A DNA stretch of 53,496 bases, counting the filler, from Jimgerdemannia flammicorona (Eukaryota), in the NCBI GenBank assembly GCA_003990765.1. It is 3 parts of 3 records of this genome, joined end to end, with 100 filler letters (N's around TTAATTAATTAA, not from the genome) between each part and the next. Parts side by side here need not be neighbours in the genome. Positions count along the whole stretch, not along the records: positions 1 to 17,768 come from RBNJ01002416.1; 2 more parts are not named here. The stretch is one strand, 5' to 3'. The position numbers and the translations under genes are program-made. Below are positions 1,497 to 41,773 of the stretch, piece by piece. The notes under the pieces were generated by a model that did no database searches, was not told the origin of the DNA, and saw nothing but the letters and a program-made list of their open reading frames with translations. Positions within the stretch are counted from its first letter, which is position 1. Every line of letters starts with the position of its first letter.

Positions 1497-4400
1497 CACC
1501 TTTCTCCTGTATAATTCACATTACACCAACTTCAAGGAATGGTTTTCAACACAACTCAGAGAAAAGGTACTATAAAAATATCATTGAACAAGAGTTCCTA
1601 TAGGTGTACTGGGTCAGGGGAACCTGGAGCATTCAGCTGGCAGAATGTGGGAAGAGGTTATGGCCTGGAGATGGAGGCCTTTGGAGGGTCGAAGGGTGGG
1701 GAAGGCTCTGGAGATGGACTGATAGCAGGTGGAACTGGGGGAAGGCCTGGTCCCTCTAGCTTTGCAGACAAGGTGAAGGCAAGTGGATGGCTGGCTGTAA
1801 CTAGAGCTGGTGCTGCTGAGGGGAAGGGTAAGACAAGTGTCAGGAGGGGGAGTGGCACTCAGGTGGGGGATGCAAGCATAGGTGCTGGAGGTGCTGTGGC
1901 TGGAGAAGTGACTATTGATAGGAGTGTGACAGAGAATCAGAAAAAAAAAAGAGATGTGATGACTGATGGCAAGGTAGGGCAGGGGTTCCCGATGTAGAAG
2001 GGGGATCTGGTAGATGGTGTGATAGAACTTGTGGTGGCACCATTGCTCAAGAAATTGATTTCAGAGTTTGCAGCTACTATGTGCTTCTGGGGCTTAGTGG
2101 TGACAGTGAGAATGGTCCCGGGGCTTATCTTGAAGCAGGTAGCTAGGGCTGCCTTAGTGAAGTTCCTGAAGGGTCTGGAGGGGGTTGAGGTGGGCTTTAA
2201 GGAGGTGGGCCCACTGGAAGAGGCTCTGAAGTCTAGAGTGGTAGTTGGAAGTAGTGGTCCCCATAGTATGCTATCTGAGGTGGGACCCCAGGGTGGTGTA
2301 GTTGCTGGTAAAGGGGGTGCCTACAGTGATGAAAGAGAAGACTAGGAGGAGGGTGGAGGAGGTGATGGTGGAGTATGGCAATGTGGTGGATGTCAGTTTC
2401 CAGGTATGGGAGGGGACCTCCATCAGGACAGGTGATGTAGATGTCAGAATTAGACTGACTGGCAGTGAGGCCATAGGGAAGATGAGTGACTGGTCATCAG
2501 TGTTGATGTGGAGGGCTTTTGTCTGTAAGGTATTGAGGGTGAGAGGGAGTAAAGAGGAGGAGGAGGACTTGTTGGAGGCTCTAGAGAAGTTGAGTAGTGC
2601 TGTTGAGCAGAGGGCGAAGGCCTGGAAATTGTATGTAGAGTTGATGCATCTGGAGATTGTTGATGAGAAGTATATTCATACTAACAAGAGACAGTAAGAG
2701 AGGGCTCAAGGATGCAGGAGGCAGAGGGAGTTGCCGGTGAGCATGGAAGGAGGGGCAAAGATAAAGGCTGGGGGCCCTGAGAAGTCTGAGGGAGTGGAGG
2801 CAAGTGTCTGGACTAGCAAGAGAGGAGGAGATCAGGAGGAGGGCCTGGAAGGAGCTGTGAAGGCACCACTCAAGGACCCATTTGCTGATGGTACATTCGA
2901 GGTCTGGGACCCAGTTATGGATGACACTCCCCCTCTGATTAGACAGGGTCCAGCTGTGAGGGGATGGGTAACAGAGGATGAGCTGATGCAGAGTACTCAG
3001 CAGATACACTTTGGGGTTCCTGATGTTGCAAAAGGAGGCCAGGTAGTGGCCATTGATGAGGATGAGCTGGTGGATGTCCCTGAGGAGAGATGGGATGAGA
3101 CTACCAGTATAGGGGCAGATACTACAATACTGGATACAGGAAGGCCAGGGACACCTGGAGAGAAGAAGGTGGGGAACCTGCTGTGGATGAGCAAGGTGAT
3201 GGATAACCTCATAGCTGAGGAGTTGGGGGAAGTGGACCTGTGAGTGATAAGTGAGAAGCATTGGGCAGGGATTCTGTGTGGAGAGGGGGTGGTGGGGGCA
3301 GTGAAGGTAGAGATTCTCATGATTTTTCTGGAGGAGGAGGGATATGAGGTTGATAAGGTGAGGGAGGCAGAGCTGGCAGTTGTTGCTGGTGAGCAGACTG
3401 CCTACTATTGGGCAGAGTACTATAGTTTGCAACTATGGCAGGAGGCATGCCTAAAGTATCATAAGGACTTTGAGAAAAAGGAGGATGGGGTGATGGCTGA
3501 ACTTCTGGAAGGGTTGGAGGCACAGGCAGCTAAAGAGATGGGGCTGGCTGCAGAATATGACTTAGACTTAGCACAGGAGGAGTTGAATGCAGATTTGTAG
3601 AGAATGTGATTGATAATCAACATTTTTCCTAATGAACAGTATAACTAACATTTTCTCTCTGAATGTGAATGGATTATGGGGTTCTGGGCAGCAGAAAAAC
3701 ATTTTTACTTGACTTAAGGAATTGAAGCTGATCTCTTTTTACTGCAGGATGTACAGTGTGAGAGAGGAACATCAGGAGGAGTGGACTAGAGAATGGGGAG
3801 GAGCTACTGCTTGAATTGGCAAGGTGGCGATTCTGATATAGAAGGGTAGAGGAGATTTGGGTGAAATCAGGAGCTAGGGTGACCACTTGGTCTGAGGAGA
3901 ATGGCATTAATCTGGATGGGAATCTGTAAAGGTTGGCTCCTACTACTGCCCTACAGTTAGGAGTGAGCAGATTGAGTGGATTAGAGATTTTTTGGAGGAG
4001 GGCATTCTTTTGAAGGAAGGTGTCAATGTTCTGGAGGTGACTTTAATATGGTGTAGGATCTACAGTTAGATAGAACTGATGGAGGGTAGGGTGCAGGTAG
4101 GAGGAGTGGTGGACTGGATAAGTGGGAGGAGGCAGAGAATCTTAGCTCCTTAGGAGATATGGGTAGAACATATTGGGGCAACAGGAGGGTCTATACACAC
4201 TGGGTGAATGGGCTGGGTATGAGAATTGACTGGATTCTGACAGCTGAATGTTGGGGTGTTGATGTTTGGAGGACTCTGGAGGTGGAGTAGTGCCCATGGT
4301 CCAATCACTGGGGGCTATTGAGGCAGGGGCAGTTTGGGGAGAGTGGAGATGGACCTAGACATTGGTATCTGAACTCCTCCCTGCTGGCTGAGAAGGGGTT

Positions 4401-5730
4401 GTGGGACCCATGGGTGGAGGGCATTCAAGTGAAGATCACTCACTGGATATGAGGGTTCATCTGTAGGTACTTGCTGGATGAAGTTGAAGGAGGCTGCAAG
4501 GGTATATTAGGGAGAAGCTGATAGGGAGGCTGGGAGACAGAGAAGGAAGCAAGTGAGGTGTGCTTCTAATAGGTTGATTAGATTGCAGACAGAATGGGCT
4601 GATTTGCTGTCTTCAGATGAGGTGGAGAATTGGAGGTTGGAGAGGGCAAAACTGGAGGTAGTGGAGTTGCAACAGATATTGAGAGAGGAGAAGGAGATTC
4701 ATATGAAAGGAATGGCTGCCAGGCTATAGTGGCAGGGGCTTGAGGAGAGTGAGTGGCCTACTAAGTACTTGTCTAGGCTTCTCCAAGCTAGGAGGGTATG
4801 GTATTGATGAGATGGGATCTTTGATACCAAGGGGGAAATGGTACATAGGATGCAACAGATCTTAGGGGAACTGAAGGAGAGATGGAGGGGTCTGTGGAGT
4901 GAGGAGGAAGGGAGTGCAGAAGAACAGGCAATTGGAGACATGCTGGAGGAGTGGGATCTGCTGCAAGTAGAAGGACTTGGTGACTTGATTGTACTGGTCC
5001 AAGAGGAGGAGATCCAGAGGGTCCTTGTAGCAACCAAGCTTGGGACAGCACCAGGAGAAGATGGGTTACCTTGGGACTTCTAGAAGAAGATGGCAAAGGT
5101 CCCTGGAGTGTTGGGAGAGATGGCAGCTCTCTGTGACCATATTCTTCTGAATGGCAAGTGGGTTGGAGAGCAGGACTTAGGACTGGTGGCCTTATTGTAC
5201 AAAGACAAGAGGAGGAGGGAGGACTGGAAGAACTGGAGACCAATCATGCTTCTGGATATGGACAGGAAGATGGTGACTAAGGTGATTGTTGCAAGGCTAC
5301 AGAAAGTTGCCCAACAGGTGCTGGGTGAGGAGCAGCAGAGCTTTGTAGGAGGCAGGCTTATAAGAGATGGGACTGCCTGGGTACATGGTGTCATTGAAGG
5401 GGTCCAGGCTTGTGGACTGAATGATAGACTGGTCTTTTTGGACCAGGAGAAGACCTATAACTGTGTTTAATAGATTTGGCTGGGCAAGGTGCTGGATAGA
5501 ATTAGTGTTCCCCCACAATTTCAGACTTCTATATTGAATCTATTGGAGGGCAGTAGGGCTATACTGATGTGTAATAGTGTAAGCGCACAACCTCCAAGCC
5601 ACCGAAATGATACGTCACCCTCTGAACAAGCCACTGAAATCACACGTGACCTCCGAACAAATCTGGAAATCACCTGCTTGATCACGAAGCATAGTCAAAT
5701 GGAAGTCACAGCACACAAAGCTGAGTCAAT

Positions 5731-6963
5731 ATGAAGTCACAGAACACAAGATCTACACAAACGGAACCTTACCAATCAGGACCAAATGCATATATACTGA
5801 GCACCAAGACGCGTCGAATCAGAGAACCAAAACAAACAACAACCACAACTTCCAAACACACAAACATGACCACTGAGATCTACAACTGCATCCACGCTGA
5901 CATTTGGAATGCCATTGTCAACCGAGCCACACCCCCTCTGCCCCTCATGAATATCCATAGCCTAGCACCTCTCTACTTCGTAGAAGCCCGATGGAATGCC
6001 CTGAACATGCTTAGCGAGGCCCACCGAATTGGACAAATCTCAAGCTACTACCAGATCGGCCGCCTCTTAGAAGACATAGTCGAACACCACCACGATACAG
6101 ACATGACCCAGATGTCTCAACACCAGAAGCTCATCGCCCGCAAACATCGAGAACTCTTCTATGAGTACAACACCATTATTTCCCGCCTCCGAGTTACTAC
6201 CAGTGAAATGGTTGCTACCCTGTCCTACGGCCAAATCGATGACATGATACAAGAAATCAACCACAAGTACCTCGAGTATATCGAAACCACAGACAGAACC
6301 TTCCCGCACCCCGATGACCATATCCTGCAAATGCCTCAAGTCGGATACGCCATGAAGGACGTTTACGATATAATCCACTTCGACGAAGACAAAGCAGAAG
6401 ACAATGATCCCTCTGATGCCGACATGACCTCTAGCCAAGGATCTCTGCCAACCCTGATCACTCCGCCAACCTTGCCAATGAACTTACAACAGTTCATAAC
6501 TACATACGAGACTTATTGGGACAATGACCACTGGCACGAATACCAACTCGCGTTCACTCCCGATTACTTCAATTACAATGAAGAGACCGGAGAACACAAC
6601 CTGTACCTTCAGACAACCCTTGAGATCGAACCAACCACTCCACCACCTGAGTACGAGCAACATGAACCACAGCCGCCAGCATACTATAACCCTGCAACTC
6701 ATAGTGCTGTAATCTATAGAAGGTATGCAGACAGCGAATCTGATGAAAGCGAAGACAGTACACCCATCCTTCGCCCACCAATACCTTATCTAGCATATAA
6801 AACAGACAATGCTATCCTGTGGGACGGAGATAAAGTTCCAATATATTACTACCTCAGCCAACAAGGAGAAGTAATCCACGAACTATTATTCCTAAACAAC
6901 TACTTCATCAGAGATGATGCAATCGATGGTGATGTCATCGAGGACTACCCAGATAGTGCCTAA
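5731..6963 (+). CDS. Intact 410-aa LTR-encoded accessory protein of unknown function (alternative start 5866)
   Basis: Uninterrupted, CpG-retaining ORF inside LTR-1. The N-terminal domain aligns with degenerate ORFs at ~11880-12747 and 46441-46887. Acidic/Pro-rich C-terminus with PPEY and PPAY. Confidence 0.8.
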   Translation: MKSQNTRSTQTEPYQSGPNAYILSTKTRRIREPKQTTTTTSKHTNMTTEIYNCIHADIWNAIVNRATPPLPLMNIHSLAPLYFVEARWNALNMLSEAHRIGQISSYYQIGRLLEDIVEHHHDTDMTQMSQHQKLIARKHRELFYEYNTIISRLRVTTSEMVATLSYGQIDDMIQEINHKYLEYIETTDRTFPHPDDHILQMPQVGYAMKDVYDIIHFDEDKAEDNDPSDADMTSSQGSLPTLITPPTLPMNLQQFITTYETYWDNDHWHEYQLAFTPDYFNYNEETGEHNLYLQTTLEIEPTTPPPEYEQHEPQPPAYYNPATHSAVIYRRYADSESDESEDSTPILRPPIPYLAYKTDNAILWDGDKVPIYYYLSQQGEVIHELLFLNNYFIRDDAIDGDVIEDYPDSA

Positions 6964-7007
6964 ACCTGTAAATAGTCTAGCAGTCATAGTATAGTTAGAT
7001 TAGCCTT

Positions 7008-7283
7008 GTACGACGTGACTGTGAACTGACTCAGCAATCAGACGATCTCTTGACATGTCAGATCACACTCGTACTACGTGACTGCATTCTGACTCAGCAA
7101 AGCACTTAGTGCTACATCCATATCTAGCCTAGTCCAGATAGCCCCTTACTAGTATAAATACCCCCTCCCCCAGACCTCAGAATCTCAGACTTGAACAATC
7201 TGAACACAACTTCTGAGCACTTCCCCACAATATCCCTTCACACAAATACTCCTAGTATAGCAATATCATGAATAGCAAATAAA
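7008..7283 (+). promoter_or_regulatory. LTR-1 enhancer repeats, TATA box and polyA signal
   Basis: Two 30-bp direct repeats (7008-7037, 7071-7100), each with ACGTGAC and TGACTCA. TATAAATA at 7153-7160; AATAAA at 7278-7283. Confidence 0.6.
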
Positions 7284-9418
7284 CCTATTCCATAACCCAC
7301 AAATCACTCTTAAGTAAATCCGCTCTCTGTTAGGTCCTACTCCTAACCCTGTCACGAAATTTCCTAATTGGGTATTGTCTGCAGCGATACGCCAATTCAA
7401 CTAAGCTGGTCTTAGTTTCTTGAACTTCCTGAAATATGGAAAACCCTGAACATCTAGAACTAGTCCGAAAAAGAACTTTGGTTGAGACATCAACCCAATC
7501 TTGAAATCGATAAGCGTAGAGGACATACTCCATATGAAATTGATCTTGACCATAAGAAAATGGTCTCCCAGAACATCCAGAATATCCAGAAAACCCTTTC
7601 AGAACTACGTAACGATTACCCTAAAAAGTAACCCTCTTACAAATGGTCACCAGGGTCTGGCATTTCTCTTGGGAAGAGGAGTTCCACAGGGAGATCCACT
7701 GTCACCTATTCTCTATACTCTTTCATTAGAACCTTTGATGGATAGGATTTGCCAGAAGGTGACAGAGTTCTTTATATATGGTATTGTGTGGAAAGTGGGG
7801 GCTTTTGCAGATGACATGGTAGTTAGACTTGGCTCTATGGCAGATATTGAGGTACTTAAGGAGACAGTGGAATGGTATGAGCCACACTCTGGGGTAAAGC
7901 TTAACTAGCATAAGTGTGAGATAATAGTGCTAGGAAATGGGCTAGTGGGTGGGGATGTCATTGGAACAATTGTCCCTACAGAAGTGGTAGTGCAGTATCT
8001 GGGCATCTTCCTTTCTATATATGGATCTGTCTTGCCACAAGAGTGGTGGGAGAGGAGGGTGACCATTTGGGGGGAGGCCCTTAGATGTTGGGGGGGTTGT
8101 CATATCTCTCTGGCAGAGCAGGTGTTGATTCTGAATGTCTACTGGTTCCCCAAGCTATGGTACATGACCTATCACTTAGACTTCCCAGCTTGGGTGGTAA
8201 AGAGGCTGACAAAGATGGCTAGAGATTGGATTTGGGCAGGAAGAAGATCACAGATCAGTTGGGATACCCTTATAACACTGGTGGTTAGGGGAGGTCTAGA
8301 CCTTGTGGATTTCCCTAAGAGGTTGTACTGCCTGCAAGCCTGGTGGTTGAAAAGGGCTATTGAACTGCAGGGAGGGAGTTGGGTGCCATTGATGCAGAAG
8401 GTGTGGGAGATGAGATCCTCCCCTCAAGGGTTCTTAGGAGATTTGCTCTCTCTGGTGGGGCTGAATAGAAGTCGATGGCTGCAGTTTAAGGGCTTCTGAT
8501 GGGGGGTGGTGGATGGAGTACACTGAATAGGTCTGCACTAGCATGGTAATGAGGGGGAGGTGCTGTGGGGTCCAGCTAGTGGTGATGGGACAGACTGCTT
8601 CTGGGGGGTGCTCTGCTTGCTAAGTTTGATATTGGGGATAGAGTGGAGTGTCAGTGGGGTCTTGGCCAGGATCTTTGCCAAGTGGCTGGTAGGCAGTGAG
8701 GATTGGTAAGGAGTGGGACTGGGCAGGAGTCTGGTCATGGAGTGCTGAGGTGCAGCGGTGGCTTTCTCCCAAGTTCTGGATAGTATATGGCAGAAGCTGT
8801 GGAGGAACATTATGTTGAATTTCTGTGCTGGGCATCTGGTGGAGGGTGGTTGATTAGATTGTAAGGAGTGTTATAATGTGAGGCAAGTTGGGGGATTTGT
8901 GCAGATGCCAGAACATTGGCTGGGAGAGTGTGAGGTTCTGGGAGACTTTTGGATAGCAGTAGAGAATCAGCTGGGTATAGTGAAGAGGCTGGATGGAGAG
9001 AGAGGTTACTGGGAGGATTTTAAATCTCAGCTAGTGGGTGGTGTGGGCAATAGTTGGCTCACTATAGGGTGGGTTTTAGTGGTATGGATTGGACTGGCTG
9101 GACATTGGCTCTTTGTTTTTGAGGAGAGGTAACAGATAGATTTACAGAAGAAGTTGTTAAGGTGGGAGGGGTTGATGGGGGATCTGCTGACTGGGTGGTA
9201 GGTGGGTTGGGGTCCCCAAGGTGGGCAACATTGCCACCTGGTGGAAGGGATCTGTGAACAGAGTGGTGGGCAGGTGGAGATGGTATTAGACAAGGTGGTC
9301 TTTCATCGAGTGGAGATAGGGAGAGGGGGCCCCCCCTAGGGGGATTGGATAGGGTTGGGTGTTGTATATTATTTAGAAGATAGATAGGTGTATTAATAAA
9401 GGAAGAAGTCCAAGTGAC

Positions 9419-11664: not shown

Positions 11665-13441
11665 TATTATAATGATGACTTCAGAATGATGACATCAGCA
11701 CAGGAGATAGTTTTTCCTTACAAGCCACTAGATTGGAGCATAAGAAGATCATATGGCATATGAGATGAGCAATGATAACCAACTGTGAGTCATTATACAA
11801 GTATTCTGAGGAATATAAAAAAAAGGATCAAGGAACTACAGTAATAGCAACCAACAAGACCCACTAATCCCAAAATAGCTCAAAGACTCACTACAAATGA
11901 AATACCTACTGCCTGCCAAACCTTAAGATTAAGAAACCACCAAGGTATCTCAGTTGAAGAAAGAATGTTCTAAGACATCAGAAGAGCTATAAAAACCTGC
12001 TCAAGAAGGACTCCTAGTATCAATCTGGATACTGGTGATTCTTATCACTATATCCTCTATCACTGTGAAATGGAAACAAGAATCACCATTGCTACCAAAT
12101 GCCTCTGAATATAGCAGGAGTATGAAATAGGAAACCTCCTCTGCCAGGAGTTCCTACAGGTCAGCACTCAAGAGCTATAAGATGCCACCCCCATAGATAT
12201 ATATAAAACAAGGATAGCCAAGAAGATCCATCAGATCTTCAGGCATGCACCATGATCAATCTCCAACTTGGAGTATGTTAGAGTCTCAGATTTCAGAGAC
12301 CTGTTATCCTGCCATATCAATGTACTAGAAGCCAGGATGGCTACAGAAGCCCAGTCCACTATCACTCTCAATAGTGATGAAGTAGAAGACTTCTGGTATC
12401 CTATTCTTCAGGACAACCTAGACCAATTCCTACAAGGATTGATCTTAGTATTCCAAGGCCCAAGTATCTAGGTTAGACCTCCTCAAAACTCTATATTTAT
12501 CTCCTATTTTGTGGAAGAGAACCTCATAGACTGGAGAGCTCCAGATCTCCTTATTCCCACTGCTACCACTGAATGTGATGATATCATTGGTGATGATATC
12601 ATCCTACATGATATCGAAGTATGTGAAACATATGACTTATATGATGACAATGATGAGACAGACAAGATGTTTGCAGACCTCATCTCCTTCAAAGACATCC
12701 TGACCTCTAATGATGAAGCCCCTATGGTCTTGAATATTCTGCTCTAATTTTTAGGTGATGCAGAATTGTTTCAGCACTGGCATTTTGATGTAATACTGAA
12801 TAATACCAGCACTGGTATTCTGATGTAACACCAGATTATACCAGCATTCTGAATCTGTACAACCATTAGTGCCAACCCTAGAACTTAGCAGTTTTTTCTG
12901 TCCTGACATTTTATTTTAGTTATTGGAATTTATATTTAGCTTTTATATCTTAGGAACCATTGAATTATATTTTGTATAAATACTCCTCTTATTTCCTCTG
13001 AAATAAAGTCAATTCTGGTTCACTTATACACACTTCCTTGCAAGCAATCTAAGAGATAACAAGACAGTTTAAAGATAAGAAGTTTGAGGACTATAAGATC
13101 TTGAGAAGGCACTCCAATAAGAACTTACTTATAACAAACTTATAGTTAGTCTAAGAGATATACCTTGAAGAGAATCTGATATATTTGAAGAACTCAATAC
13201 CTACTATATATATGATAATATATATAATATAGTCCTCTCAGTTCTGGTTCACTTACATATACTTTCTTATAAGTAATCTAAGAGATAACAAGACAGTTTA
13301 AAGATAAGAAGTTTGAAGACTATAAGACCTTGGGAAGGTACTCCAATAAGAACTTGCTTATAACAAACTTGAGTTAGTCTAAGAGATATATCTTGAAGAG
13401 AATCTGGTGTATTTGAAGGACTTAGTAACTACTATATGACA
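11665..13441 (+). mobile_element. Solo LTR-2, degenerate, with ORF remnant and duplicated 3' end
   Basis: Ends tattata (inferred decayed TGTCATA)...TATGACA; TSD atatg/atata. TATAAATA at 12975, AATAAA at 13002. ~35-bp repeats at 12772-12850. ~13010-13217 is repeated at ~13240-13441. Confidence 0.72.
11881..12747 (+). pseudogene. Degenerate homolog of the LTR-1 accessory ORF
   Basis: One frame reads DIRRAI...EYEIGNLL...RIAKKIHQIFRHAP*SISNL, versus DIWNAI...YYQIGRLL...LIARKHRELFYEYNTIISRL in the 410-aa ORF. Acidic tail; stops are of the C>T/G>A type. Confidence 0.7.
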
Positions 13442-13762: not shown

Positions 13763-13795
<33 letters not shown>

Positions 13796-16432
13796 TTTTT
13801 TTTTTTTTTTTTTTAGTTACTTGGACTTTGCTATTTATTACCATTCTATCATATAAATTACATTCCCCTCTTACTACTCAATACTCCTAGAGAGCCTCCC
13901 TCCTACTCTCTTATACTTAAAAACTACCTTATCACTAACTACTTCAACTTTTCTCCTACTCTATCCATATACATATTTTCTCTATCAAATAGTATTGCTG
14001 ATCTCTCTGCAGACCCCATTCCAGTCACCAGTCTGTTAAGATATTCTCCATCAATCCTTCTCATCTTGCCAACCACTCTTCCAAACTCAAACTCTTTCTT
14101 TCCTTAAATACAAACAGTCAGTGACTCACCAATCTTATCTATACTACTAATATCTAACCCAAAGTCAGCCACTCCTTCTCCACTCCCCTTACCCTATCTC
14201 TCAGATCCTCTCATTGACCCTACTCACCATCCCCCCTATACATAGTACTTAATCTATTCCTAACCACTAACTAGAAATTACTAAGTACCTTATACTCTCT
14301 AGCTAATATTCTAATATCTGTATAAATTCTCTATTCTGACTCACATTATAGCACTCCTCATAGTCAAAGTCCCTCCCCTCTACAAGATGGCTTGAGTGAA
14401 AGTTAAGCATAATATTTCTCTGCAGCATGTACTACTAAACTACTCAGTACTTGAGTGGCAACCATTACCTCACCTCTATACTCTAGGCCCAGACTCCATT
14501 CCAGTCCTACTCCTCACCAATATTTACCATCTATTAGCTATTTGACCATATATCCTGTCCCATCTCCCTCTAGTACTCTATCTCATCATTAATATCAAAG
14601 TCTATAAGGGGAGTACTCCCCAGTAGCACTCAATCTCATCTCTACATTGCTGGGCCCCAAGGTATTTCTCTCTTATCTCTCTGCCAGCAAATTTCAATAC
14701 AGTGAGCTCCATCCACTACTCCTCACCAGAAGTTCTTAAATCTCATATATCTACTATTTGGAAGCCCAACCAAGGACAATAAATCCCTGGTAGTTCCTCT
14801 CAGTAAGCACCTCATATTTCAGACCTTCTTCATCAGAGAAGCCCAGCTACCACCTCTCAGTTCTATCACTCCTTTCAACCACCAAGCTCTCAGACAATAC
14901 AATCTCTTTAGGAAGTCAACCAGCCTAAGGCCTCCTCTAGCTACTGGTAATAATAAGATTTCCCAGCTAATCTGACTCCTCTGCCTAGCCCAGATCTAAT
15001 CTCTTGCCAGCTTCAATAGTCTCTTCACCACCCAGGCCAGAAAGTCCAGATGATATGCCAAATACTATATTTCAGTAGCCAGTAGATATTCAAAATCATA
15101 ATGTATTCCATCAAGGAAAGGTGGCAGCCTTCTCAATCTCACAGGATCTCTCTCCAGATGGCCACTTATTACTCTCACCAAGATTATGGCAGAACTGATC
15201 TATATATAGAGAGATAGATACCTAAGTATCTCACAGCCTCTCTAGTAGAGACAATTGTTCTATATGCCCCTTTCTCTGCTATCTTACCAGTTACAATAGT
15301 TTGGTAAGCAACCTTTTGAGTCCACTTACTACAATTATTACTCTCTCTACCTTGGGTTGGTTTGCTATACCTATTGTAGAGTAGTGGAAGGAAGGCAATA
15401 GTGATGAGTTGCTCCTTTATTGGTATCAGATCAGTGTCTTCTCTACTTTTTCATAGTTTCTGGTGCCTTTGGCTGCATCTAGAGTATATTTATTTTGGTG
15501 TAGTACCTTCTTTTTTTTGCCATTGCCAATAAGATATTGTTTTGATATATCATGGGCTACATAGGGAGTTGGCCAACCTTGAGTATCAAGTGCTCAGTGT
15601 AGGTTACCTGTAGGTCCTCAGTGTCTGTGGTGGAGCCCTCTGGCTTTGGTGAGCTTTCCAACAAGTGCAGTTCTAACATAGGTGACTGCTTTTCAGGTGT
15701 TATCAGGATGAAAGGGGAGATGACCATTATATATAGGAGGAAGGGCGATAATGGTGAACCAGTAGAGTACCAGACTGGGGGCAGTTGTCAGAGCTGGGGT
15801 AAGTATTACTTTGGTGGAGCCTTTTAATTGGTATGGAGCAGTTAGGCAGTAGGTGTCACTCTCAGCTTCTTTTGGTAATTCAGCAGATTGGACCCCAGTC
15901 ATTGAAGGGGATTGGGGGGCTCAAAGCTACCTATTTCAGATATCTTGGCTACACTTAACTGGAACTGGGAGCTGACACAGCAATGTGATCAAGGCCCACA
16001 GGCTTGAGTAGTGGGGTATTGGAAGTCTCCTCCTACCTCACATGTAAGTTCTTTACTTACCTCAACTAGGAGAACCAGACCCTACCCACCATGATATACT
16101 TTGATGAGAGTTTTTTCTTTGCCTGTTATTCTCTTTAAAGTGATAGAGGCTATTCTATTTAGCTTGAGTATAGTTTTGTATATATATTGGGGTCTTGGGT
16201 ATGTGCTTTCAGTTATTGGTATATGGCTGAGTTCTCCCTGGTAGTAGAGAGAGCATGGTATGCAGAATGAGGTACAGGCCAATATAGGCCCTACTGTATC
16301 TAATATAGTTGAGCTGCTGGACAATAGCTAGTCTAGATTAATGAGGAGGTAGTGCTTGATGGGTGTGGAGGAGGGTTTTGGCCTATATAGTCTAGGTTCT
16401 CTTCCAATAAAAATCTGCAGAACATTGAGTCC

Positions 16433-16520
<88 letters not shown>

Positions 16521-17728: not shown

Positions 17729-17768
<40 letters not shown>

Positions 17769-17868
17769 NNNNNNNNNNNNNNNNNNNNNNNNNNNNNNNN
17801 NNNNNNNNNNNNTTAATTAATTAANNNNNNNNNNNNNNNNNNNNNNNNNNNNNNNNNNNNNNNNNNNN
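17769..17868. other. Assembly gap with TTAATTAATTAA linker
   Basis: N-run containing the same 12-mer as the gap at 35634-35733. Confidence 0.95.
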
Positions 17869-18073
17869 ATAATTAAATATTAAAGATATATATTTAATAT
17901 TTTATTTAAAAAAAATTATATCTTTTAAACTAAAATTAAATTAAAATAATTTTAAATTTAATAGTTATAATCAATTCATAATATTTATAACTTATAATTT
18001 ATAATTTATTACATTTAAATTTACCTGCTATTTTACTAAACATTTTGAAGCTTTCAACTTGCGGCCTTCGACT

Positions 18074-20107: not shown

Positions 20108-20250
20108 CAGGTTTAGAATAGTACTTCAAGTTGACTCAGCTTTATGATCTGTGACTTTAGTTTGACTTAGCTTTGTGATCTTGCATATGATTCCTAAATT
20201 TGTTCTTAGATAATATGTAATTTAAGTGGCTTGGAGGTTGTGTGCTTACA
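20108..20250 (-). mobile_element. LTR-1 family 5' fragment, apparently without the ORF
   Basis: Minus strand tgtaagcacacaacctccaagccac...aagctgagtcaacttgaagt matches 5578-5737. Confidence 0.75.
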
Positions 20251-28490: not shown

Positions 28491-28549
28491 CTTGGTTTGA
28501 CTTCCTCAACTGGTACTGGGACCTCTATCCCCAGGTCTGCAAGACTTGC

Positions 28550-28600
<51 letters not shown>

Positions 28601-28659
28601 GTCCCTTGGACTCCGTCTTTATTACCAGTCTATGAATAAGTATACAATATCCCCACCCA

Positions 28660-31600
28660 CTAACCGATCCCCATCGGGGGGCCCCACCCCACCTCTTTAC
28701 GTATAAAGACCACCCTCTCACCAACAACTCCAAATCTCCCACCACTCTGACCACAGATTTTCATCACCAAGCGGTGCCTCTGACCCCCCTGCAGCCCCCA
28801 ACCACGCCACCAGCCTGTCAAGGTATCCTCCATAAGGAACTGCCATCTTGCTAACCAGCTCCCCAAGCTCTGTCGCTCCCCCTCCTCAAATACAAATAGC
28901 CAGTGGCCGGCCAGTCCAACCCAAATAGCCAACACCCAGCCTAGCATAATCCACTCCTCCCCTACCCCTCCTATCAATCGATCCCTCAGGTCCTCCCACC
29001 TCCCCCGTACATCATCACCCCTACACCTTACCCCTAAGCGGACCCCAATAGCCTGCCAAAAGTCTCCCAATACCTCACACTCCCCTAGCCAATGTTCTGG
29101 CGTCTGTACCAACCCCCCTTCCTGTCCTACATTATGGCACTCCTCGCAGTCAAAGCAGCCCCTGACAACAAGGTGACCTGAGCGGAAGTTAAGCATCACA
29201 TTCCTCCTCAGCATGCGCCACCAGACTATCCAGTACTTCGGCGGCATCCAATTTTTCACTGCAGCACTCCAGGTCCAAACTCCATGCCAGTCCCACTCCT
29301 CACCAATTCCAACTCCTTGCCAACCACTAGGCCACAGATCCTGGCCTGGTCCCCTTTGGCATTCGATGCCATCACGAATGTTGAACTCCAGTAAAGACAT
29401 GCCTCTCAGAAGAATGCTATCCCATCTCCACATCGCCGGGCCCCAAGCCCTCTCCCCCTCATCTCCTCGCCAGCAAATACCAATACAGTGTACCCCCTCG
29501 GCTATACCCCACCAAAAGCCTTTATATCTCAGTTGCACAGTGTTCTGAAGCCCAACTAATGAAAGAAGATCACCAGTCAAGCCTCTAGGTGATGTCCTTC
29601 TCTCCCATATCCTCTGCAGCAAGGGGACCCAGCCCCCTCTATGCAATTCCACCGCCCTTCTCAGCCACCAAGCCCGCAAGCAGTGTAGTCTCTTGGGGAA
29701 GTCCACCAGCCCAAGACCCCCTCTTGCCACCGGTAGGGACAGAGTCTCCCAACCAATCTGACTCCGTCTGCCAGCCCAAATCCATCCTTTGGCCACCTTC
29801 ACCAATCTCTTCACCACTCAGGCTGGGAAGTCCAGATGATAGGCCAAATACCACAGCTTCGGCAGCCAGTAAACATTCAAAATCGAGATCCTTCCTGCCA
29901 GAGAGAAGTGTCTACCCCCCCAACCCCATAGGTCCTCCTCCCAAATTCCAATCCTCTGCTCCCACTACAGCCTGGGCAAAACAGACCCATAGACCAACAA
30001 ATAGATGCCCAAGTACCACACTGCCTCTCTGGTGGGGACAATTGTTCCAATAACTTCTCCGCCCACCAAGCCATTGCCCAGCACCATTGTTTCGCACTTG
30101 TGCCAATTCAGCTTTGTCCCAGAGTTCGCCTCATACCACTCCACTATCTTCTGGAGCTCCTCAACATCCACAGTCACTCCCAAACCAACCACCATGTCGT
30201 CCGCAAAGGCTCCAACCTTCCAGCCAACTCCATAGATAGAGAGCCCCACGATTTTCTGCCGAATCCTGTCCATGAGAGGTTCCAAGGAGAGAGCATACAA
30301 AATGGGGGATAGTGGGTCCCCCTGGGGCACTCCCCTACCTAGAGGGAAAGCCACCCCGCGATGCCCATTGCACACGAGCGCAGCCCTACTCCTTTCCAGT
30401 AGGCTGACCATCACTGACCGAAATGGGGCCAGAACTCCAATTCTATCTAATACTTTTGCCAGCCAGACTCGCCGCACCCAGTCATAAGCCTTCTCCTGAT
30501 CCAAGAAGACAAGACGCCCATCCAGTCCACAGGCTCGAGCACCTTCAATAACTCCATGTACCCAGGCCATGCCATCTCTAATGAGCCTACCCCCTATGAA
30601 GCCCCTCTGTTCAACACCCACAATTTGCTGGGCCACCTTCTGTAACCTTGCGACCACCACCTTAGTCACCAACTTCCTGTCCATATCTAGCAACATTATC
30701 GGCCGCCAGTTCTTCCAATCCTCTCGCCTTCCCTTGTTCTTAAAGAGCAGCATCACCAGCCCAAGGTCTTGCTCCCCCACCCATCTCCCTGACTGCAATA
30801 TAGAGTCACACAGTGCTGTCAGCTCTCCCAATATGCCCGGGACTCCAACCATTCACTTCCAGAAATCCCAGGGGAGGCCATCCTCCCCAGGCGCCATGCC
30901 TGAGGCTGTCGCGGCAAGAACCTGGTGGATCTCATCCTCCTTTACAGGCATCACCAGGTCACTTAGTCCCTCAGCTCGTGGTGGGTGCCAATCTTCTAAT
31001 GTTTGGTCAATGGCTGTAGCATCCGCCCCACCCTCCTCCTTGCTCCACAGTCCACTCCATCATGCCTTCAGCATTCCAAGGATGTCCTGTACACCATGCA
31101 CTAGTACATCATCCGAGTCAAGTACCCCTTCCCACCACTGCTGTATCCTTCTCGCTCGAAGTGTCCTTGTGAGAAACTTGGAAGGCCTTTCCCCTTCCTC
31201 CACCCCCTGCCAACAAAGCCGTGCCACCAGGCCTTGCACTCTTGCCTCTTCCTCTTCCCGCAGCATCTGTTGCAGTTCCCCAACCTCCATCCTCACCCTC
31301 GTCATTCTCCAATCATCTTCTCCCTCCACTGTAGCCAGTCTTGCCCACTCCTCCAGGAGCCTAGCCAATCTAGTAGAAGCCCAACGCACTTTCTGCCTTC
31401 GCTGCCTCCCAGCCACTCTGCCAACCTCACTCCAATACATCCTGGCCATCTCTTTCATCCTCATCTACCAAACCCCAATTGCGGCCCCTTCCTGCCACCA
31501 ATTCGCCACCTTCAGCTGAATGTCTTTTGCCCACTCCTCCCACTGGACCTCATCATCCAACAAGGAGGAATTCAGGTGCCAATGTCCAGGCCCATCTCTA

Positions 31601-32315
31601 CTTCCCCCAAAACACCCCTGTCCCAAGAGGCCCCAGTGATCTGACCACGGACACCATTCTACCTCTATCACCTTCCAGACATCGTGGCCCCAACAGTCGG
31701 CCATCAGAATCCAGTCAATCCTTGTCCCCAGACCTCCAGCCCAATGCGTATATACTCTCCTGTCCCCCCAGTGCTCCCTACCAGCATCCACCAGTGCTCC
31801 TAGCCTTTCAACTGCCTCCCACATCACTAACCCTCCACTCCTGCTCTCCACACCCCATCCTCCGTCAGTTCTATCCAGCCGCACATCTTGAACCATATTG
31901 AAATCTCCTCCAAGCATATTCAGCCCAGCTTCAGCAAGGATCCCACTCTCCAGGAGCCCTTTCACCCAATCCACACACTCCCCCCGCACCGCAGAGCAGT
32001 AACAGGAGCCAACTGTGATCGGCTCCCAACCTGCTCGAATCCACTCACCCCAGACCAGTCTCTCCCCCCAGCTCCTCACATCCTTTATCTCCCCTCTGCC
32101 TTTCCGAACCAGAATCCCAACCTTGCTGTTCCAAATCGCTATACCACCCCATTCCTTAGTCCATTCCATCCTATCGCGTCATCCTTGCACCTGACATCCT
32201 GCAAGAGGAAGAGATTGGCCTCCAATCCCTTCAACCAAAGAAAAATGTTCCTGCATCTAACTGCACCCCTTAGCCCATTCACATTCAAAGAAAAAATGTT
32301 GGTTGTACTGTTCAT
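28660..32315 (-). pseudogene. LINE-A ORF2 (APE endonuclease, RT, C-terminal Zn motif), disrupted by several stops/frameshifts
   Basis: IFSLNVNGL, LLQD, GGDFN, RIDWIL, WSDHW; FLDQEKAYD, GVPQGDPLSP, AFADD, YLGI, GGLGL; CEEC...TPEHWLGEC. Split over several ORF-track pieces. Confidence 0.92.
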
Positions 32316-32345
32316 AATAAAATACGGTTGGTTCTCAATCAATCC

Positions 32346-34376
32346 CTACTGCTCCATGCCCCTCTCCTCCTGTGCCATGTCCAGATTATGTTCAGCCATC
32401 ACCTCCTCCTCTTCAGCCCTCTGAGCCTCCAGTCCAGCCAACAGCTCATTCATCTCCTCATCAGCCTTCTCCTCAAACTCCTCTCGGTACTCGATGCAAG
32501 CCTCCTGCCAAAGCTGCAACCCATGACACCTGTTCCAACAGTACTCAGCCTTCTCCCCAGCAACCACCGCCAACTCCGCCTCCCTCTCCTTATCCACCTC
32601 ATACCCTTCCTCCTCCAGATACACTGCGAGAATTTCCGCCTTCAGTGCCATCGCCACTCCTTCCCCCTGCAAAATTCTCATCCAGTGCTCATCACCCATC
32701 CCACGCAAGTCCACCTCCCCCAGCTCTTCTGCTGCCAGGTTATTCATCATCCGGCACATCCACAGTAGGTTCCCCACCTCCTTCCCACCAGGGGTCGCCG
32801 GCCTCCCACCATCCAGCATCATGGTGTCCACTCCCACACTTTCGTCCTCATCCCACACCTCCAGGACATCCACCAGTTCCTCCTCCCCTGCCGCCACTGC
32901 TTGGTCCCCATCCAACACCTCCGGAACGCTGAATTTCACCTGCTGGGTTCCCAGCATCGTTACATCCTCCCCAGGCTTATTCCTGGAAGCCGGGCCCTGC
33001 CTGATTAGAGGGGAAGGGGTGGGGGAGTTCTCCCAGCCATCATCCCAAATCTCCAAGGTGCCGTCAGCATATAGGTCTCTAATCTGCACCTCCTTAGCCT
33101 GCCCTGACCCTGCCCCTTCATTCCCACTCCTCTCACCAGCCCAGACACTCGCTCTGGCCCCTTCTGTACCCATCTCCATGCTCACATCCTTCTGTGGTCC
33201 ACCCCCCAGCTTAGCCAGCAAATCCTTCTGCCTCTTCCACCCCTGAGCCCTTTCCCACTGCACCTTGTCCACTCGAATCCTCTTTCCATCCACCACCTCC
33301 AGGAGCGTCGACTCCTTTAAAGTCTTCCAGGCCTTAGCTCGCCGTTCCACAGCCCCATCCAGCTCCTCCAGCGCTTCCAATAAATCTTCCTCCTCTTCTT
33401 CACTTCCTTTCACCTGCGTTACCTTGCACAGGAAAGCCCCCCAGACCAACACCAAAGGCCAGTCCCTCATCTTCCCAGTAGCCTCTTTCCCAGCCAGCCG
33501 AATCCTCACATCCACATCTCCAGTCCTGAGCGTGGTCCCTTTCCAGACCCTGAATCCGATATCCACCACCTCTCCATACTCCGCCATAACATCCTCCACT
33601 CTCTTCCTTGTCTCCATCACCATCACCATGGGTACTCCTTTCACCAGCAGTTGGACCACCCTCGGATCCCATTTCAAACATCTCGCCATCGGAACATACA
33701 CCTCCCCAACTACTAACCCAACCTTCAGCACCTCCTCCAGTGGTTCTACCTCCTCAAATCCCACCTCCACCCCCTCCAGTCCCTTCAGAAACTTCACCGA
33801 AGCCGCTCTCACAACCTGCTTAGCGATAAGCCCCAACACCATTTTTGCCATCACTACCAAGCCCCGGAAGCACAGCATGACTGCGCACACCGAGATCGAC
33901 TTCTTGAGTAATGGGGCCACTGCCAGTCCCATTACACCATCTGCCAGGTCCCCAGGCCTCGTGCCCTTCTCACAGCTCAGCTCACCATCAGCAGTCCCAT
34001 CTAGATTTTTTTGCAGATCACCCGTCACGCCCCCATCAGCAGTCCCCGCCCCAGCCGCTACCCCCCCAGCTCTACTCCTATGGCCCTCCAGAGAGGCACC
34101 CCCAAGAGGTTGCTGCCTGGAAGCTGTCACTGGTACCTTCCCCCCTCTCAGCCAGCTCTCCAGTCCTGCTCCCTGCCGACCCCCCTTCACCTTCTCCACA
34201 AAGCTCACCCTGCCAGACCCTTGACCTCCAGCTCTGCCCCCTCTTCCACCATGGCCCCCTGCCAGCAGGCCCCTCATACTTCCCCCCAAGCTGGGGCCTC
34301 TCCCCACTTGCTGCCATTCAAATGCTCCAGGGCCACCCTGCCCAGTACGCACCTCTGGATGCTCGTTGGTCGCCAT
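32346..34376 (-). CDS. LINE-A ORF1p (676 aa), RRM-like region and acidic helical C-terminus
   Basis: Open frame upstream of ORF2. LLVKGVP...AEYGEVVDI...RTGDVDVRI resembles the L1/Tx1 ORF1 RRM. No CCHC knuckle seen. Confidence 0.85.
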   Translation of the reverse strand: MATNEHPEVRTGQGGPGAFEWQQVGRGPSLGGSMRGLLAGGHGGRGGRAGGQGSGRVSFVEKVKGGRQGAGLESWLRGGKVPVTASRQQPLGGASLEGHRSRAGGVAAGAGTADGGVTGDLQKNLDGTADGELSCEKGTRPGDLADGVMGLAVAPLLKKSISVCAVMLCFRGLVVMAKMVLGLIAKQVVRAASVKFLKGLEGVEVGFEEVEPLEEVLKVGLVVGEVYVPMARCLKWDPRVVQLLVKGVPMVMVMETRKRVEDVMAEYGEVVDIGFRVWKGTTLRTGDVDVRIRLAGKEATGKMRDWPLVLVWGAFLCKVTQVKGSEEEEEDLLEALEELDGAVERRAKAWKTLKESTLLEVVDGKRIRVDKVQWERAQGWKRQKDLLAKLGGGPQKDVSMEMGTEGARASVWAGERSGNEGAGSGQAKEVQIRDLYADGTLEIWDDGWENSPTPSPLIRQGPASRNKPGEDVTMLGTQQVKFSVPEVLDGDQAVAAGEEELVDVLEVWDEDESVGVDTMMLDGGRPATPGGKEVGNLLWMCRMMNNLAAEELGEVDLRGMGDEHWMRILQGEGVAMALKAEILAVYLEEEGYEVDKEREAELAVVAGEKAEYCWNRCHGLQLWQEACIEYREEFEEKADEEMNELLAGLEAQRAEEEEVMAEHNLDMAQEERGMEQ

Positions 34377-35633
34377 GATACTAGTAGCTTTTCTCCAGAA
34401 ACTGTGTTGGAAGTGTTGCCAAAGGGTTGTGTAACCTGAATGTTACCGGAGAAAGATGGCAAGACTTGCTTGCTCTGCTCCTTCCTCTAGTCCTTTCTTT
34501 GGAATCAGATACTGCAGGAATGGGCCTCCTCCTCTTAGGCTCTCATTTGGTACATCACACTCTATGACTATCTGTAATCATAGAGACTGATCATGTCCTT
34601 TCCTTCCCTCTCCAGCTTGTATATTTACCCTTACCTGGTATTATGGCTACTTTGGCCAGCCCTATCCCTTCTTTAGTAGAGATAAGTTTCATCATGACCA
34701 TATCCATGGGTGCAGTCTTCTTGATAGTTTATACTCAGCCTACCAAGGTAATTCTAGTCATGAACAACTTAACTAGTTTACCATTGATGAATGGCAGGAA
34801 GAACTTTATGCCTACTCTTTTCATACTCTTTCCAAGACAGCCTATCATACTATTGATACTATGTATAATTCTGGTGGCCATCTTGCAGTTAGGTTCTGCC
34901 TGACTAAAATCACAAAGATACTTAGGTGATTGAGCAATTATATATTTTCTTTATTTCTCTTTCTTTCCCTCACTTACCTTGGCTGGTTCTCTGGTTGTTA
35001 AGAGTATATTGAGTTATATATCTCATATTAGTTGCTCAATGTTTAGTTGTCAATATTGTTTCTATAGTTGGTACCAGACTTGTGTATATTTTATTTAGCT
35101 TCTCTCTTTGCTTTTTATACTTATCATCTTTATAGCTATGACAAAATAGTTTACCCAGTCTATCTATAGAGTAGTCACCTCTCTGGCCTTTGTTTTGCTT
35201 TTCTTAGCTAGTTGTTTAATTCACTGGTCTCTTTTTACTTCTCTCATCTTAGGAGCAATTACTATTTGTTGCTCTAATGTATCTTTTTTTTTTTATAATA
35301 AATAAATTCCTCACTTGAAGTCTAACCCTAATCTAAGCCACTCATATAATTTCCCATTTAGCTAAACTCAGCTTTATGGCCCAAAGCAATTCCAAATTAA
35401 GAAGCAGTCACATTGATTAGCTAAGCCTCTCATTGGATATAAATATCTCCATTCTCCATTATTTTTTCATTATATAAACAAAGGTCATGTGACCTGTATT
35501 TCATAATTTCAACAAAACAAACAAATATACCTCTGCCTATTTTGGCTATGTTGGCCTCCTCCTCTATCATTAGTGATAATGCAAATATAATATATCTCTT
35601 TGTATACTTTGGTGCCACTCTTTACTGTTTTTT

Positions 35634-35733
35634 NNNNNNNNNNNNNNNNNNNNNNNNNNNNNNNNNNNNNNNNNNNNTTAATTAATTAANNNNNNNNNNN
35701 NNNNNNNNNNNNNNNNNNNNNNNNNNNNNNNNN
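35634..35733. other. Assembly gap with TTAATTAATTAA linker
   Basis: N-run with the linker, followed by a polyA run. Confidence 0.95.
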
Positions 35734-35764
<31 letters not shown>

Positions 35765-35766
<2 letters not shown>

Positions 35767-38471
35767 GATAGACAATTTATATTATTTCCTAATTAGGACA
35801 GTTCTTTGGTATATAGACAATTTGTATAATATAAGCAGATTTCTTATGCAATTTCTGTATAATGATCTTGTATTCTAAATATATATAATTTCTATATAAT
35901 AATATCTATAAGTCAATTTTTTTAGATATATAATTTCTGTATAATAATCATGATTTGGCATTGTGTGGGTGATTTGATAGACTTCCTTATTAGGTAGTAA
36001 ATTACTTAAAAATGGCAGATAATATAGATTCTTAAACAAGGTTATTTCAAAGAATATTTTATTTATATAAATGAGTATTCACTATAAAGATATTTTTTAT
36101 ACTAGACTGACTTTATAGCAAGAGAACAGATCTCTTGAAAATAACTAAGATAATGTAGATTTTTTCTAATTTGATAGACTTTTTGAATATCCATAAAATT
36201 CTTTACTTAAACTTGGTAGCAAATCTCAGACCTTATATCAGAAAGTAGACTAGAGTAGAAAATGACTCACAACTCTTTATAGTAGCTCATTGTCAGGTTT
36301 CTCCTTCTAAGTATATCAGATAATTGGCTTTTACTTTAATTTTTAGACTGAGGTTTATTCTCTCTTATCTCTGGGAAATTTTATATAGTTGTAGTTACTA
36401 TCTGATTACTATTTAGCTAACTATAGAATGTATAGTAATGTTATTGAGAAAAAAGAGTGACTGGATATATCTACTGAGCACAGATATATCTGATAGATAT
36501 AGATATGTCTAATGAGCATATATTTATCCTTAGAATATAGATCAATAAATCTGATTTATATATGTAGTATCTTTGGCTAATTATATATAAGTAGTAGTAT
36601 ATATGAGTAACCAGATATAGATAACTATACTATACTGAGTATTTATATCATCCATCTATACTATATTATTTACTTATTATATTAGCTCTAACTAAAGAGT
36701 AATCTATACCCAGACTATTCTTTAGTTATAATAATAGTATTTATAAGTATTTTCAGTATTTATATCTGTACTATATCTTCTCAAGTATCTGAATTACTTC
36801 ATTCTAGTAGCTCTTCTTCTTTTGCAGAGAACAGGACTTCAATGTAATTGATAATACTCAGATAGGTGAGCATGATTATACTCTGAAAGTTATTTAGAGA
36901 GAACTGGGCTTGGGTCAGTATTGTATATTTTGTTTATAGATTTGTATAGAGTCTGTCTGCAGCAATAGTGTTCCTTTAGGACAGACTAGTAGTATTATGA
37001 AAATAGATCTGCTCTAAGGCTAGAAGGTTTTACAGTAGTTGATTGATTGTATAGTAGATCTGTAGTTGGTGAATCTGCAGTAGGTATTCTGCTAGAGTAA
37101 GATTTTCTTAGTATATCTGAATCTGTTAAAGATAGGTCTTATTGATTTTTTGAAACTAGAGTAAGTAAATTGGTAAAGCTTAGAAGCAATTGAGAATAAG
37201 GGTATAGAGGCACTGGTAAATTCTCTGATTTATTATATAGATAGTAAATATATATATCTTGAGATAATTGATATAGACAAGAGTCCTTAGAGTTTATTTT
37301 TCTATTTTTCTTAAATAGATTCTATATTCTCTGATATTGTATATAAGATAAGGTTCTTTCTATTTGGGCCCCAATTTGGCAGCAAAGTTTGTTTTGATCA
37401 TACTTCTCCAAACTAATACTAGATCTTCAATCTTGATCCTATGATTCTTCTACTTTTAGTTATAGTAATTCTTTTGTCTTTTCTAGATCTTGATTATCTG
37501 AGCTCAGGCTTGATTATATAATTGTTCAGTCTTTTTGAAGATTCTTATGATCAGTAGTTCAAGACTTCTTGATAAATATCATCTCAATTGGCTTTTATTT
37601 GATAGAGATAATAGAGGTATTCTGAATTTTCCATAGGATCTCAATTAAGCAGAGATTTTTAATTAGTAAGATTAACTCAGACAAGTCCTTTCTTGATGGT
37701 CTGGTTCATTTATTCTATCATAATATTGGTTTGAAGGTGGTATAATATAGTCTGTTTTAGGTGGATCTTATAAATTTAAGTATAACTTATAATTATATTA
37801 TTGACAAATTCTGTGCTATGGTCAGAGATAAGTTATACTGGGGGTCTATGTATATCTGAGTGTGAGACTATGGAAGAGACCAACAATGATCAAGGTATTA
37901 GTAATTTCTATTGTGAAAGCTTCAGACTATTTAAGATATATTTATTTCTTCTTAGTATAGCTGGCAGAGGTCTAATAATATCTACTCTCTATTTCTGAAA
38001 GATATTATCCAATAGTATAATTGGTTGTCATGTGCTTGGTAGTTGTTCTTTCCTTAGTACTTCTGGTAGATATCAAATTTCTTCAGTATTGTAATGTTCC
38101 TGGCTCAATAGAAACAAATTACAAGGTTGGGGGTTGACATAGTTTGGCTTAAGCCCCCAGTTACTTTATTAAAAGCAACAAAATGTTCTTGGTATTTAAT
38201 GGCATAATAGTCAAAGCTGGATATCTGTGAATGATTTCCTTATTGGGATGGTTCTCTGGATATAGTGGTAATTTTATATAGTATGAGTGTTCCTTATACA
38301 TAATGGTCTGACAATTTGGCAGTTTGCCTTATGCAATTTCTGTGTGATGATTTCTGTATAGTATGATGATCTCCAAAAATATGCAATTTCTGTATGACAA
38401 TCTTGGTGGACTTCTTCTTAATTTGACACAGATTCTCCTAAATCAGCAACTTACTGAGAATAGAGGATGGT
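35765..38471 (-). mobile_element. Ty3/Gypsy tandem remnant: leader of next unit, shared LTR (~36234-36681), ORF3, partial integrase, internal deletion, leader
   Basis: ~37330-38090 matches the integrase region at 48760-49540. 38090-38470 matches 51836-51873 plus 52923-53230. The LTR matches 46928-47315 at both ends. Confidence 0.78.

Positions 38472-41734: not shown

Positions 41735-41773
<39 letters not shown>

Follow-up and report, generated by a model that had tools for sequence, protein, structure and literature searches.

Protein-coding genes embedded in the unique 3′ region (U3) of a long terminal repeat (LTR) are textbook features of a few retroviruses. The sag gene of mouse mammary tumour virus (MMTV), the "LTR open reading frame (ORF)" of this betaretrovirus, lies in U3 and is borne by every LTR copy, and nef of the human and simian immunodeficiency viruses (HIV/SIV) and bel/bet of foamy viruses are sense accessory ORFs in, or overlapping, the U3 of the 3′ LTR. 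Here we describe a comparable arrangement in Jimgerdemannia flammicorona (GenBank assembly GCA_003990765.1). Positions 5578–7641 (+ strand) of a 53,496-nucleotide (nt) stretch of joined sequence, which we call the window, hold a 2,064-bp insertion that we read as a solo LTR from a high-copy family of LTR retrotransposons, carrying an entire sense orphan gene in its long U3. We give this reading a probability of roughly 0.7.

The LTR ORFs of endogenous MMTV proviruses are expressed, with effects on the host (PMC2118998). Functional units have also been described inside the LTRs of other elements: 5S-like in Cassandra and small-RNA-like in Helenus and Ajax (10.1101/2023.07.14.548913, PMC10886601), and hammerhead sequences in retrozymes (PMC4918200). 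The additional ORFs of the bdelloid elements Juno and Vesta (ORF3) and of plant Ty3/gypsy elements are family-specific and often have no known homology (PMC5408684). The LTRs of crapaud elements in Podospora are modular, with a conserved 3′ half and a variable 5′ half of U3 ahead of the TATA box (PMC10787394). Phrase searches of open-access full texts, which are no proof of absence, found no description of an LTR retrotransposon whose LTR encloses an entire protein gene; in those searches, LTR-embedded units were RNA genes and extra protein ORFs lay in internal regions.

The insertion starts with TGTAAG (5578–5583) and ends with CTTACA (7636–7641), as a preliminary description of the locus had claimed, and these termini form a 6-bp inverted terminal repeat of the TG..CA type. 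It is flanked by AATAG on the left (5573–5577) and AATGG on the right (7642–7646). The 5-bp target-site duplication (TSD) of the preliminary description is therefore present but imperfect, with four of five bases identical. AATGG occurs singly, in an alignment over the junction, in a sister copy at 45.6 kb of the long interspersed nuclear element (LINE) that hosts the insertion. We joined the 500 nt to the left of the insertion to the 500 nt to its right and aligned the product against the window. The joined flanks gave a single collinear match across the junction in four uninterrupted sister LINE copies, at 45107–46095 (79% identity), 25080–24163 (72%), 30843–29870 (71%) and 17330–16517 (69%). 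Given the 4/5 TSD and the collinear sister copies, we conclude that the insertion is clean, and that it generated a 5-bp duplication that has since acquired one substitution.

The gene interrupted by the insertion is the reverse-transcriptase gene of the LINE, pieces of which match RVT_1 on both sides: an ORF fragment at 5084–5467 (+) covers profile positions 6–80 (E = 1.2e-6) and another at 7486–7905 (+) covers positions 102–182 (E = 5.6e-8). The observed/expected CpG ratio is 0.73 in the LTR and 0.79 in its coding sequence (CDS), as against 0.03 in the LINE flank (2000–5577); the best-kept LINE copy (28.6–34.4 kb) has a ratio of 0.36. The contrast between the LTR and the LINE flank indicates that the LTR insertion is much younger than its host: the LINE is old and CpG-depleted, and the insertion is fairly recent. 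As a separate observation, the loss of CpG from old repeats points to strong methylation-type decay in this genome.

The putative CDS (5866–6963) is in sense orientation and lies entirely between the LTR start at 5578 and a TATAAA motif at 7153, which is the position of U3. This U3 is unusually long, at about 1.6 kb. Downstream of the CDS are two 44-nt repeats with 63-nt spacing (6994–7100, with units at 6994–7037 and 7057–7100; + strand), which carry TGACTCA at 7027 and 7090 and resemble an enhancer of the main LTR promoter. They are followed on the same strand by TATAAA (7153–7158), a candidate for the main LTR TATA box at the end of U3, and by AATAAA (7278–7283), a candidate poly(A) signal inside R; the limits of R, and those of U5 from ~7300 to 7641 (+), are ones that we infer. 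This is the order given in the preliminary description, which had placed the ORF ahead of repeats, TATA and AATAAA.

That description did not include a second set of signals on the other side of the CDS. A 32-bp tandem repeat present in 2.1 copies (5595–5660, +; Tandem Repeats Finder score 88) has CACGTG at 5643 and lies ahead of the ORF. It is followed by two 31-nt direct repeats (5683–5744, +), with TGAGTCA at 5722, and by TATATA (5791–5796, +), 75 nt before the ATG at 5866 and a candidate TATA box for an ORF-specific promoter. The downstream repeats carry the 31-nt unit in inverted-complement form, and a 21-nt upstream core likewise pairs with the downstream core as its inverted complement (pairs 86% and 76% complementary). 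Hence, the same composite motif flanks the ORF on both sides, in opposite orientations. As judged from these motifs, there may be two promoters that share one type of factor site.

Relatives of the insertion were sought among Logan contigs of four public runs from four studies (X1, X2, X3 and X17), placed on positions 5478–7741 at a likeness of at least 80%. The runs include soil metagenomes, and the contigs are short and possibly derived from several species. The family is present in high copy, with 4,870 contig pieces in the four runs (3,625 + 442 + 409 + 394). The differences within the family are mostly transitions, as illustrated by X1, in which the 276 places include 93 C>T, 59 T>C, 56 G>A and 35 A>G changes. 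One X3 contig links position 5576 to position 7658, and represents a relative of the LINE without the LTR.

The contigs that run beyond the ends of the LTR have neighbours in common. On the 3′ side, CTTGGTAGTAGCAG... is common to three X1 contigs behind 7642 (agreement 0.93), and CTTGGTAGCAGC... appears in two X2 contigs, one at 7639 and one at 7642; across these five contigs from two runs, a TGG-starting sequence resembling a primer-binding site (PBS) is located two bases past the terminal CA (CT+TGGTAG...). Its first bases may be similar to the complement of the initiator tRNA-Met 3′ terminus. On the 5′ side, ...AAAGAAGGAGAGAGT is common to four X2 contigs before 5578 (agreement 0.78), and in one X3 contig AGAAGGGGAGAGT is immediately followed by TGTAAGCGCAC, an arrangement that represents a polypurine tract (PPT). 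A purine tract ahead of the 5′ end is found in five contigs from two runs. These neighbours are the best-supported loose ends, and 140 further loose ends are not among them. The common neighbours on the two sides differ at the junctions (AGAGT versus CTTGG), so they are not a duplicated target, and hence do not mark one common insertion site. They behave like both edges of an internal region. PBS- and PPT-like motifs found elsewhere in the window were dismissed as chance matches; the site at 12560 is not at any LTR end.

A 9,601-nt contig from X17 matches 6565–6749 at its positions 155–339 with 38 differences; it starts in an ORF-like stretch and runs more than 9 kb beyond the match. This length would fit an LTR plus an internal region. 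Relatives with DNA context were not found in Joint Genome Institute (JGI) metagenome contigs, which were searched with the protein and with a 21-nt pattern from the LTR start, or in viral contigs and prokaryote genome contigs. In one X2 contig, LTR position 7271 is joined directly to the LTR start at 5587, which suggests nested or tandem LTRs elsewhere.

The window contains 56 stop-to-stop ORFs of at least 120 amino acids (aa). We scanned 54 of these against Pfam, setting apart the LTR ORF, which had its own scan, and its antisense overlap at 6070–6483. RVT_1 was the sole family found, in six of the 54, and none of the ORFs matched gag, integrase (rve) or RNase H. With only LINE RVT_1 among the scanned ORFs and no second copy of the LTR in the window, the solo state claimed earlier is borne out.

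A non-autonomous DNA transposon with terminal inverted repeats (TIRs), or some other one-gene insertion, would also account for the short (6-bp) inverted repeats at the ends, for the 5-bp TSD, for the absence of a second copy from the window, and for the fact that gag-pol was never seen directly. However, the ends are of the TG..CA type and the inverted termini are just 6 bp, the layout from TATA to AATAAA is directional, Pfam finds no transposase domain, and the common neighbours are unlike on the two sides and resemble a PBS and a PPT. We therefore consider a TIR element very unlikely. Taken together, the TG..CA ends, the 5-bp TSD, the TATAAA-to-AATAAA direction with its poly(A) motif, and the PBS- and polypurine-like neighbours agree with the LTR-type insertion that had been proposed, and we conclude that 5578–7641 is very probably an LTR.

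The frame inside this LTR is intact over 410 aa between its first ATG (5731) and its stop codon (6963), and measures 412 codons from stop to stop (5725–6963). In 2,000 mononucleotide shuffles of the LTR, the longest frame had a mean of 109 and a maximum of 236 codons, and none reached 412. The ORF is non-random. Although the unbroken 410-aa ORF of the preliminary description stands, the likely CDS is shorter, at 365 aa plus the stop (5866–6963, +). We reasoned that translation is likely to start at the second ATG (Met46, at 5866), because a database relative of the protein, P0003, begins exactly there and because, in one X2 contig, 4 nt are deleted at 5830, in the interval from ATG 5731 to ATG 5866. 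The real start is thus probably ATG 5866, and the product 365 aa. This protein is acidic (pI 4.46) and has a single cysteine; its N-terminal 160 aa are predicted, at low confidence, to be helical, and Asp, Tyr and Pro are abundant in its C-terminal half.

A HMMER search over 1.84 billion representative proteins found only two relatives, and word-indexed searches agree. P0003 (128 aa) is 91% identical and starts at Met46. P0002 (247 aa) is 66–67% identical over aa 160–409. The alignment is interrupted only by two gaps of 2 residues each, and P0002 extends a single residue beyond the end of the LTR ORF; the same stop and 250 codons in frame are shared. The LTR ORF matched no Pfam family at E ≤ 10. 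Its best match by sequence in the PDB was a 27-residue stretch with E = 0.19, and its best ESM Atlas score was 0.86, with 95 common features, which is below lead level. AlphaFold2, which had been proposed for this ORF, was run on the 365-aa form and on aa 1–160, and gave predicted local distance difference test (pLDDT) scores of 31.6 and 46.8, respectively; these models are too poor for fold comparison and yielded no usable fold. Judged by sequence comparison, the protein is an orphan outside all described families, and the ORF is not gag, pol or transposase. The earlier claim that gag and pol are absent accords with the Pfam scans of this ORF and of the other window ORFs, and no known gag or transposase domain was found in the ORF.

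Gag proteins evolve fast and often escape Pfam, and the N-terminal half of the protein may be helical, which together would suit a very divergent gag; the 2-kb unit would then be a whole non-autonomous retroelement and not an LTR. However, the unit has no internal terminal direct repeats, the PBS-like sequence lies outside and not within it, and no gag family was matched. Moreover, a CCHC zinc knuckle needs three cysteines and is impossible with the single one of the 365-aa form. We regard this explanation as highly improbable.

We examined differences among family members for signs of coding constraint. The sample of substitutions comprises the best-supported 40 of 466 differences, 20 of which lie inside 5866–6963, and is therefore small and chosen by support. 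Thirteen of the 20 are synonymous and seven are not, compared with an expectation of 33% synonymous for transitions in this ORF (binomial p = 0.003), and they are distributed over codon positions 1, 2 and 3 as 7, 1 and 12 (chi-square p = 0.011). Of six indel rows, only two lie inside the CDS, where they form a −1/+1 pair in a single contig at a distance of three bases; the remaining four are outside the CDS, at 5830 and at 7198–7201. Short alignments such as these under-report indels. Since the insertion is young, the intact frame at this locus is no evidence of selection, and it is the comparison within the family that provides the evidence. Based on the frame and stop shared with P0002 and on the excess of synonymous and third-position changes, the ORF seems constrained as coding sequence and is apparently under purifying selection.

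These data also bear on whether the ORF is a mere passenger in a true LTR, that is, a captured or new sequence that is of no use to element or host and is intact only through youth. An orphan protein with two matches in 1.84 billion representatives and no Pfam family, low-confidence structure models (pLDDT 31.6 and 46.8), and a CpG ratio indicative of recent insertion (0.73 versus 0.03 in the host LINE) are all consistent with such a passenger. On the other hand, it would not be expected that a relative of 66–67% identity retains 250 codons in frame and the same stop, that synonymous changes make up 13 of 20 substitutions with only one at codon position 2, or that the indel rows listed include no uncompensated indel in the CDS. 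We conclude that a passenger is unlikely.

A real gene could nevertheless be expressed in the retroviral way, from full-length elements only, by a spliced subgenomic RNA or from the 3′ LTR. In that case, solo LTRs would produce nothing from the gene, and there would be no cassette. Known U3 ORFs such as MMTV sag and HIV nef are expressed in this manner, the U3-internal promoter amounts to a TATATA motif plus repeats, and CAG at ~5779–5781 could be a splice acceptor, albeit a weak candidate. In contrast, the repeats, the TATA-like box 75 nt upstream and the poly(A) signal downstream are all found as motifs within one LTR, and the leader ahead of ATG 5866 reads as A/C-rich, without a pyrimidine tract. 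We consider this mode of expression possible but doubtful.

In the mechanism that we propose for the solo LTR with an orphan gene, copies of the LTR would pair around gag-pol in complete elements, and both promoters would be active. The U3-internal promoter, with TATATA and the AP-1/Gcn4-type and CACGTG motifs, would transcribe the ORF, and the signal in R of the same LTR would serve to polyadenylate the transcript. In this way, 5′, 3′ and solo LTRs alike could each be a self-contained expression unit. The protein might be an accessory factor that serves the whole family in trans, perhaps by aiding particle trafficking or by countering silencing by the host; such a role in trans would explain why the ORF is intact in copies that transpose. 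In its strongest form, the proposal is that each LTR of the family, solo copies included, is a working RNA polymerase II (pol II) gene for a 365-aa trans-acting protein, with a role such as an anti-silencing, particle-trafficking or copy-number regulator. We advance this gene-and-role proposal only tentatively, and consider it more apt to prove wrong than right. The gene-dispersal cassette of the preliminary description holds up structurally and for this copy only, as an intact ORF with flanking signals. Overall, the original observation is confirmed, with the TSD amended to 4/5 and the CDS to 365 aa, and its interpretation is partly supported.

Several points weigh against our reading of the locus as a solo LTR with a constrained U3 gene. 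Gag-pol was seen beside no copy, and the PBS and PPT assignments are built on consensus ends, 30 nt long, that derive from short contigs in runs of metagenome type. Other sequences precede 5578 in two X3 contigs and follow 7641 in one X17 contig; such deviating neighbours are expected of solo copies, yet they lend no support to an LTR. The promoters and the poly(A) signal are assigned purely by motif. Twenty of 466 differences, in pieces that are perhaps from several species, underlie the synonymous excess, and the youth of this copy means that its intact frame says nothing about selection at the locus. The 365-aa form has PPxY motifs at aa 260 and aa 270, which we rejected as conserved late domains because both are absent from P0002. 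Finally, DNA-type runs are deeper in contigs over 7226–7605 than over the ORF.

The only other match of the LTR in the window, at 20250–20123 (−), covers its first ~172 nt. This fragment looks older, with 96% identity over the first 25 bases and 77% in the upstream repeat region, followed by AT-rich divergence. No ORF remnant was detected there. Low-stringency BLAST and a transition-tolerant local alignment both stop at ~172 nt; the score was 147, ten shuffled sequences gave 98–133 and a reversed control gave 123. A tblastn search of the window with the LTR ORF found no other copy (best E = 2.7). The uneven contig depth and the 172-nt fragment together suggest that LTR variants lacking the ORF may exist, and that these possibly own the common ends described above, which again counts against our reading. 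In X17, which we guess to be RNA, 5478–5781 is uncovered, the ORF is thinly covered and 7226–7530 heavily so; we draw nothing from this profile, because contig depth and gaps cannot reveal starts, ends or levels.

The most intact LINE copy of the window (28549–34500, −) has a 295-aa RVT_1 ORF (E = 6e-29) and, upstream, a 698-aa ORF (32349–34442) with no Pfam family and an Atlas score of ≤0.79, which is probably an unusual ORF1. No homologue found for the reverse transcriptases of the window LINEs exceeds 45% identity; those that carry a name belong to plant LINEs and share ~30%. LINE copies with very long poly(A) or poly(T) tails, from ~30 to >90 nt, are found at 1–50, 13765–13815, 16425–16520, 28555–28600 and 41740–41770. 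About 1 kb at 39400–40430 consists of degenerate 9-nt tandem units (GGCAAGATG-like), in which minus-strand frames of 161–335 codons are open; these frames have no Pfam match. Inverted repeats of ~135 nt, up to 99% complementary, lie 17.8 kb apart at 17734–17872 and 35629–35775, beside N runs at ~17810–17870. Two adjoining acidic ORFs of 71 and 91 aa, with one stop between them, coincide with a GC bump in AT-rich DNA at 12256–12747 (+) and may be a small or decayed gene; by tblastn, they have no similarity to the LTR ORF. Rfam gave no match in the window.

A gene located in an LTR is present twice per element and outlasts solo-LTR formation, such that its dosage scales differently with element history. 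If the proposed expression from every LTR is correct, hundreds to thousands of dispersed solo LTRs would supply the factor after the elements themselves are gone, and solo LTRs, which are usually treated as regulatory debris, would become a reservoir of coding capacity. An orphan protein that looks selected, in an organism with strongly CpG-depleted repeats, would also offer a handle on an as yet unrecognized step in retrotransposon biology or in host–element conflict.

One close parallel is MMTV sag, which is likewise a complete sense protein ORF within U3 and hence in each LTR copy. The two are not related by sequence, given that the LTR ORF has no Pfam family and a best PDB match of E = 0.19. 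They also differ in that the LTR described here has its own TATA-like box and repeats, motifs from which the ORF could be expressed, and in that it belongs to a retrotransposon, of unassigned superfamily, in an organism that is apparently no host of a mouse retrovirus. The nef and bel/bet genes start upstream of the LTR, and a solo LTR would truncate them, whereas the ORF here is wholly inside; they too have no sequence relation to it.

The remaining comparisons are with the retrotransposons introduced at the outset. Cassandra, Helenus/Ajax and retrozymes share with this locus a unit with its own promoter that is copied along with every LTR, the promoter here being a candidate based on a motif. 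Those plant elements are small and non-autonomous, and their units are pol III-type RNA genes or ribozymes; the LTR described here instead carries a 1.1-kb protein ORF with pol II-type signals. The extra ORFs of Juno/Vesta and Ty3/gypsy elements, as described there, differ in being internal, between pol and the 3′ LTR, and so occur once per element and are lost in solo LTRs. A shift of the PPT to a position upstream of such an internal ORF would yield the present arrangement. The modular crapaud LTR is a fitting model for the deeper contigs over 7226–7605 and the 172-nt fragment at 20250, although its variable U3 part is reported as <200 bp and non-coding. If every LTR of the family does express its ORF, this gene would be the protein-coding counterpart of the LTR-borne 5S unit of Cassandra, and the retrotransposon counterpart of MMTV sag.

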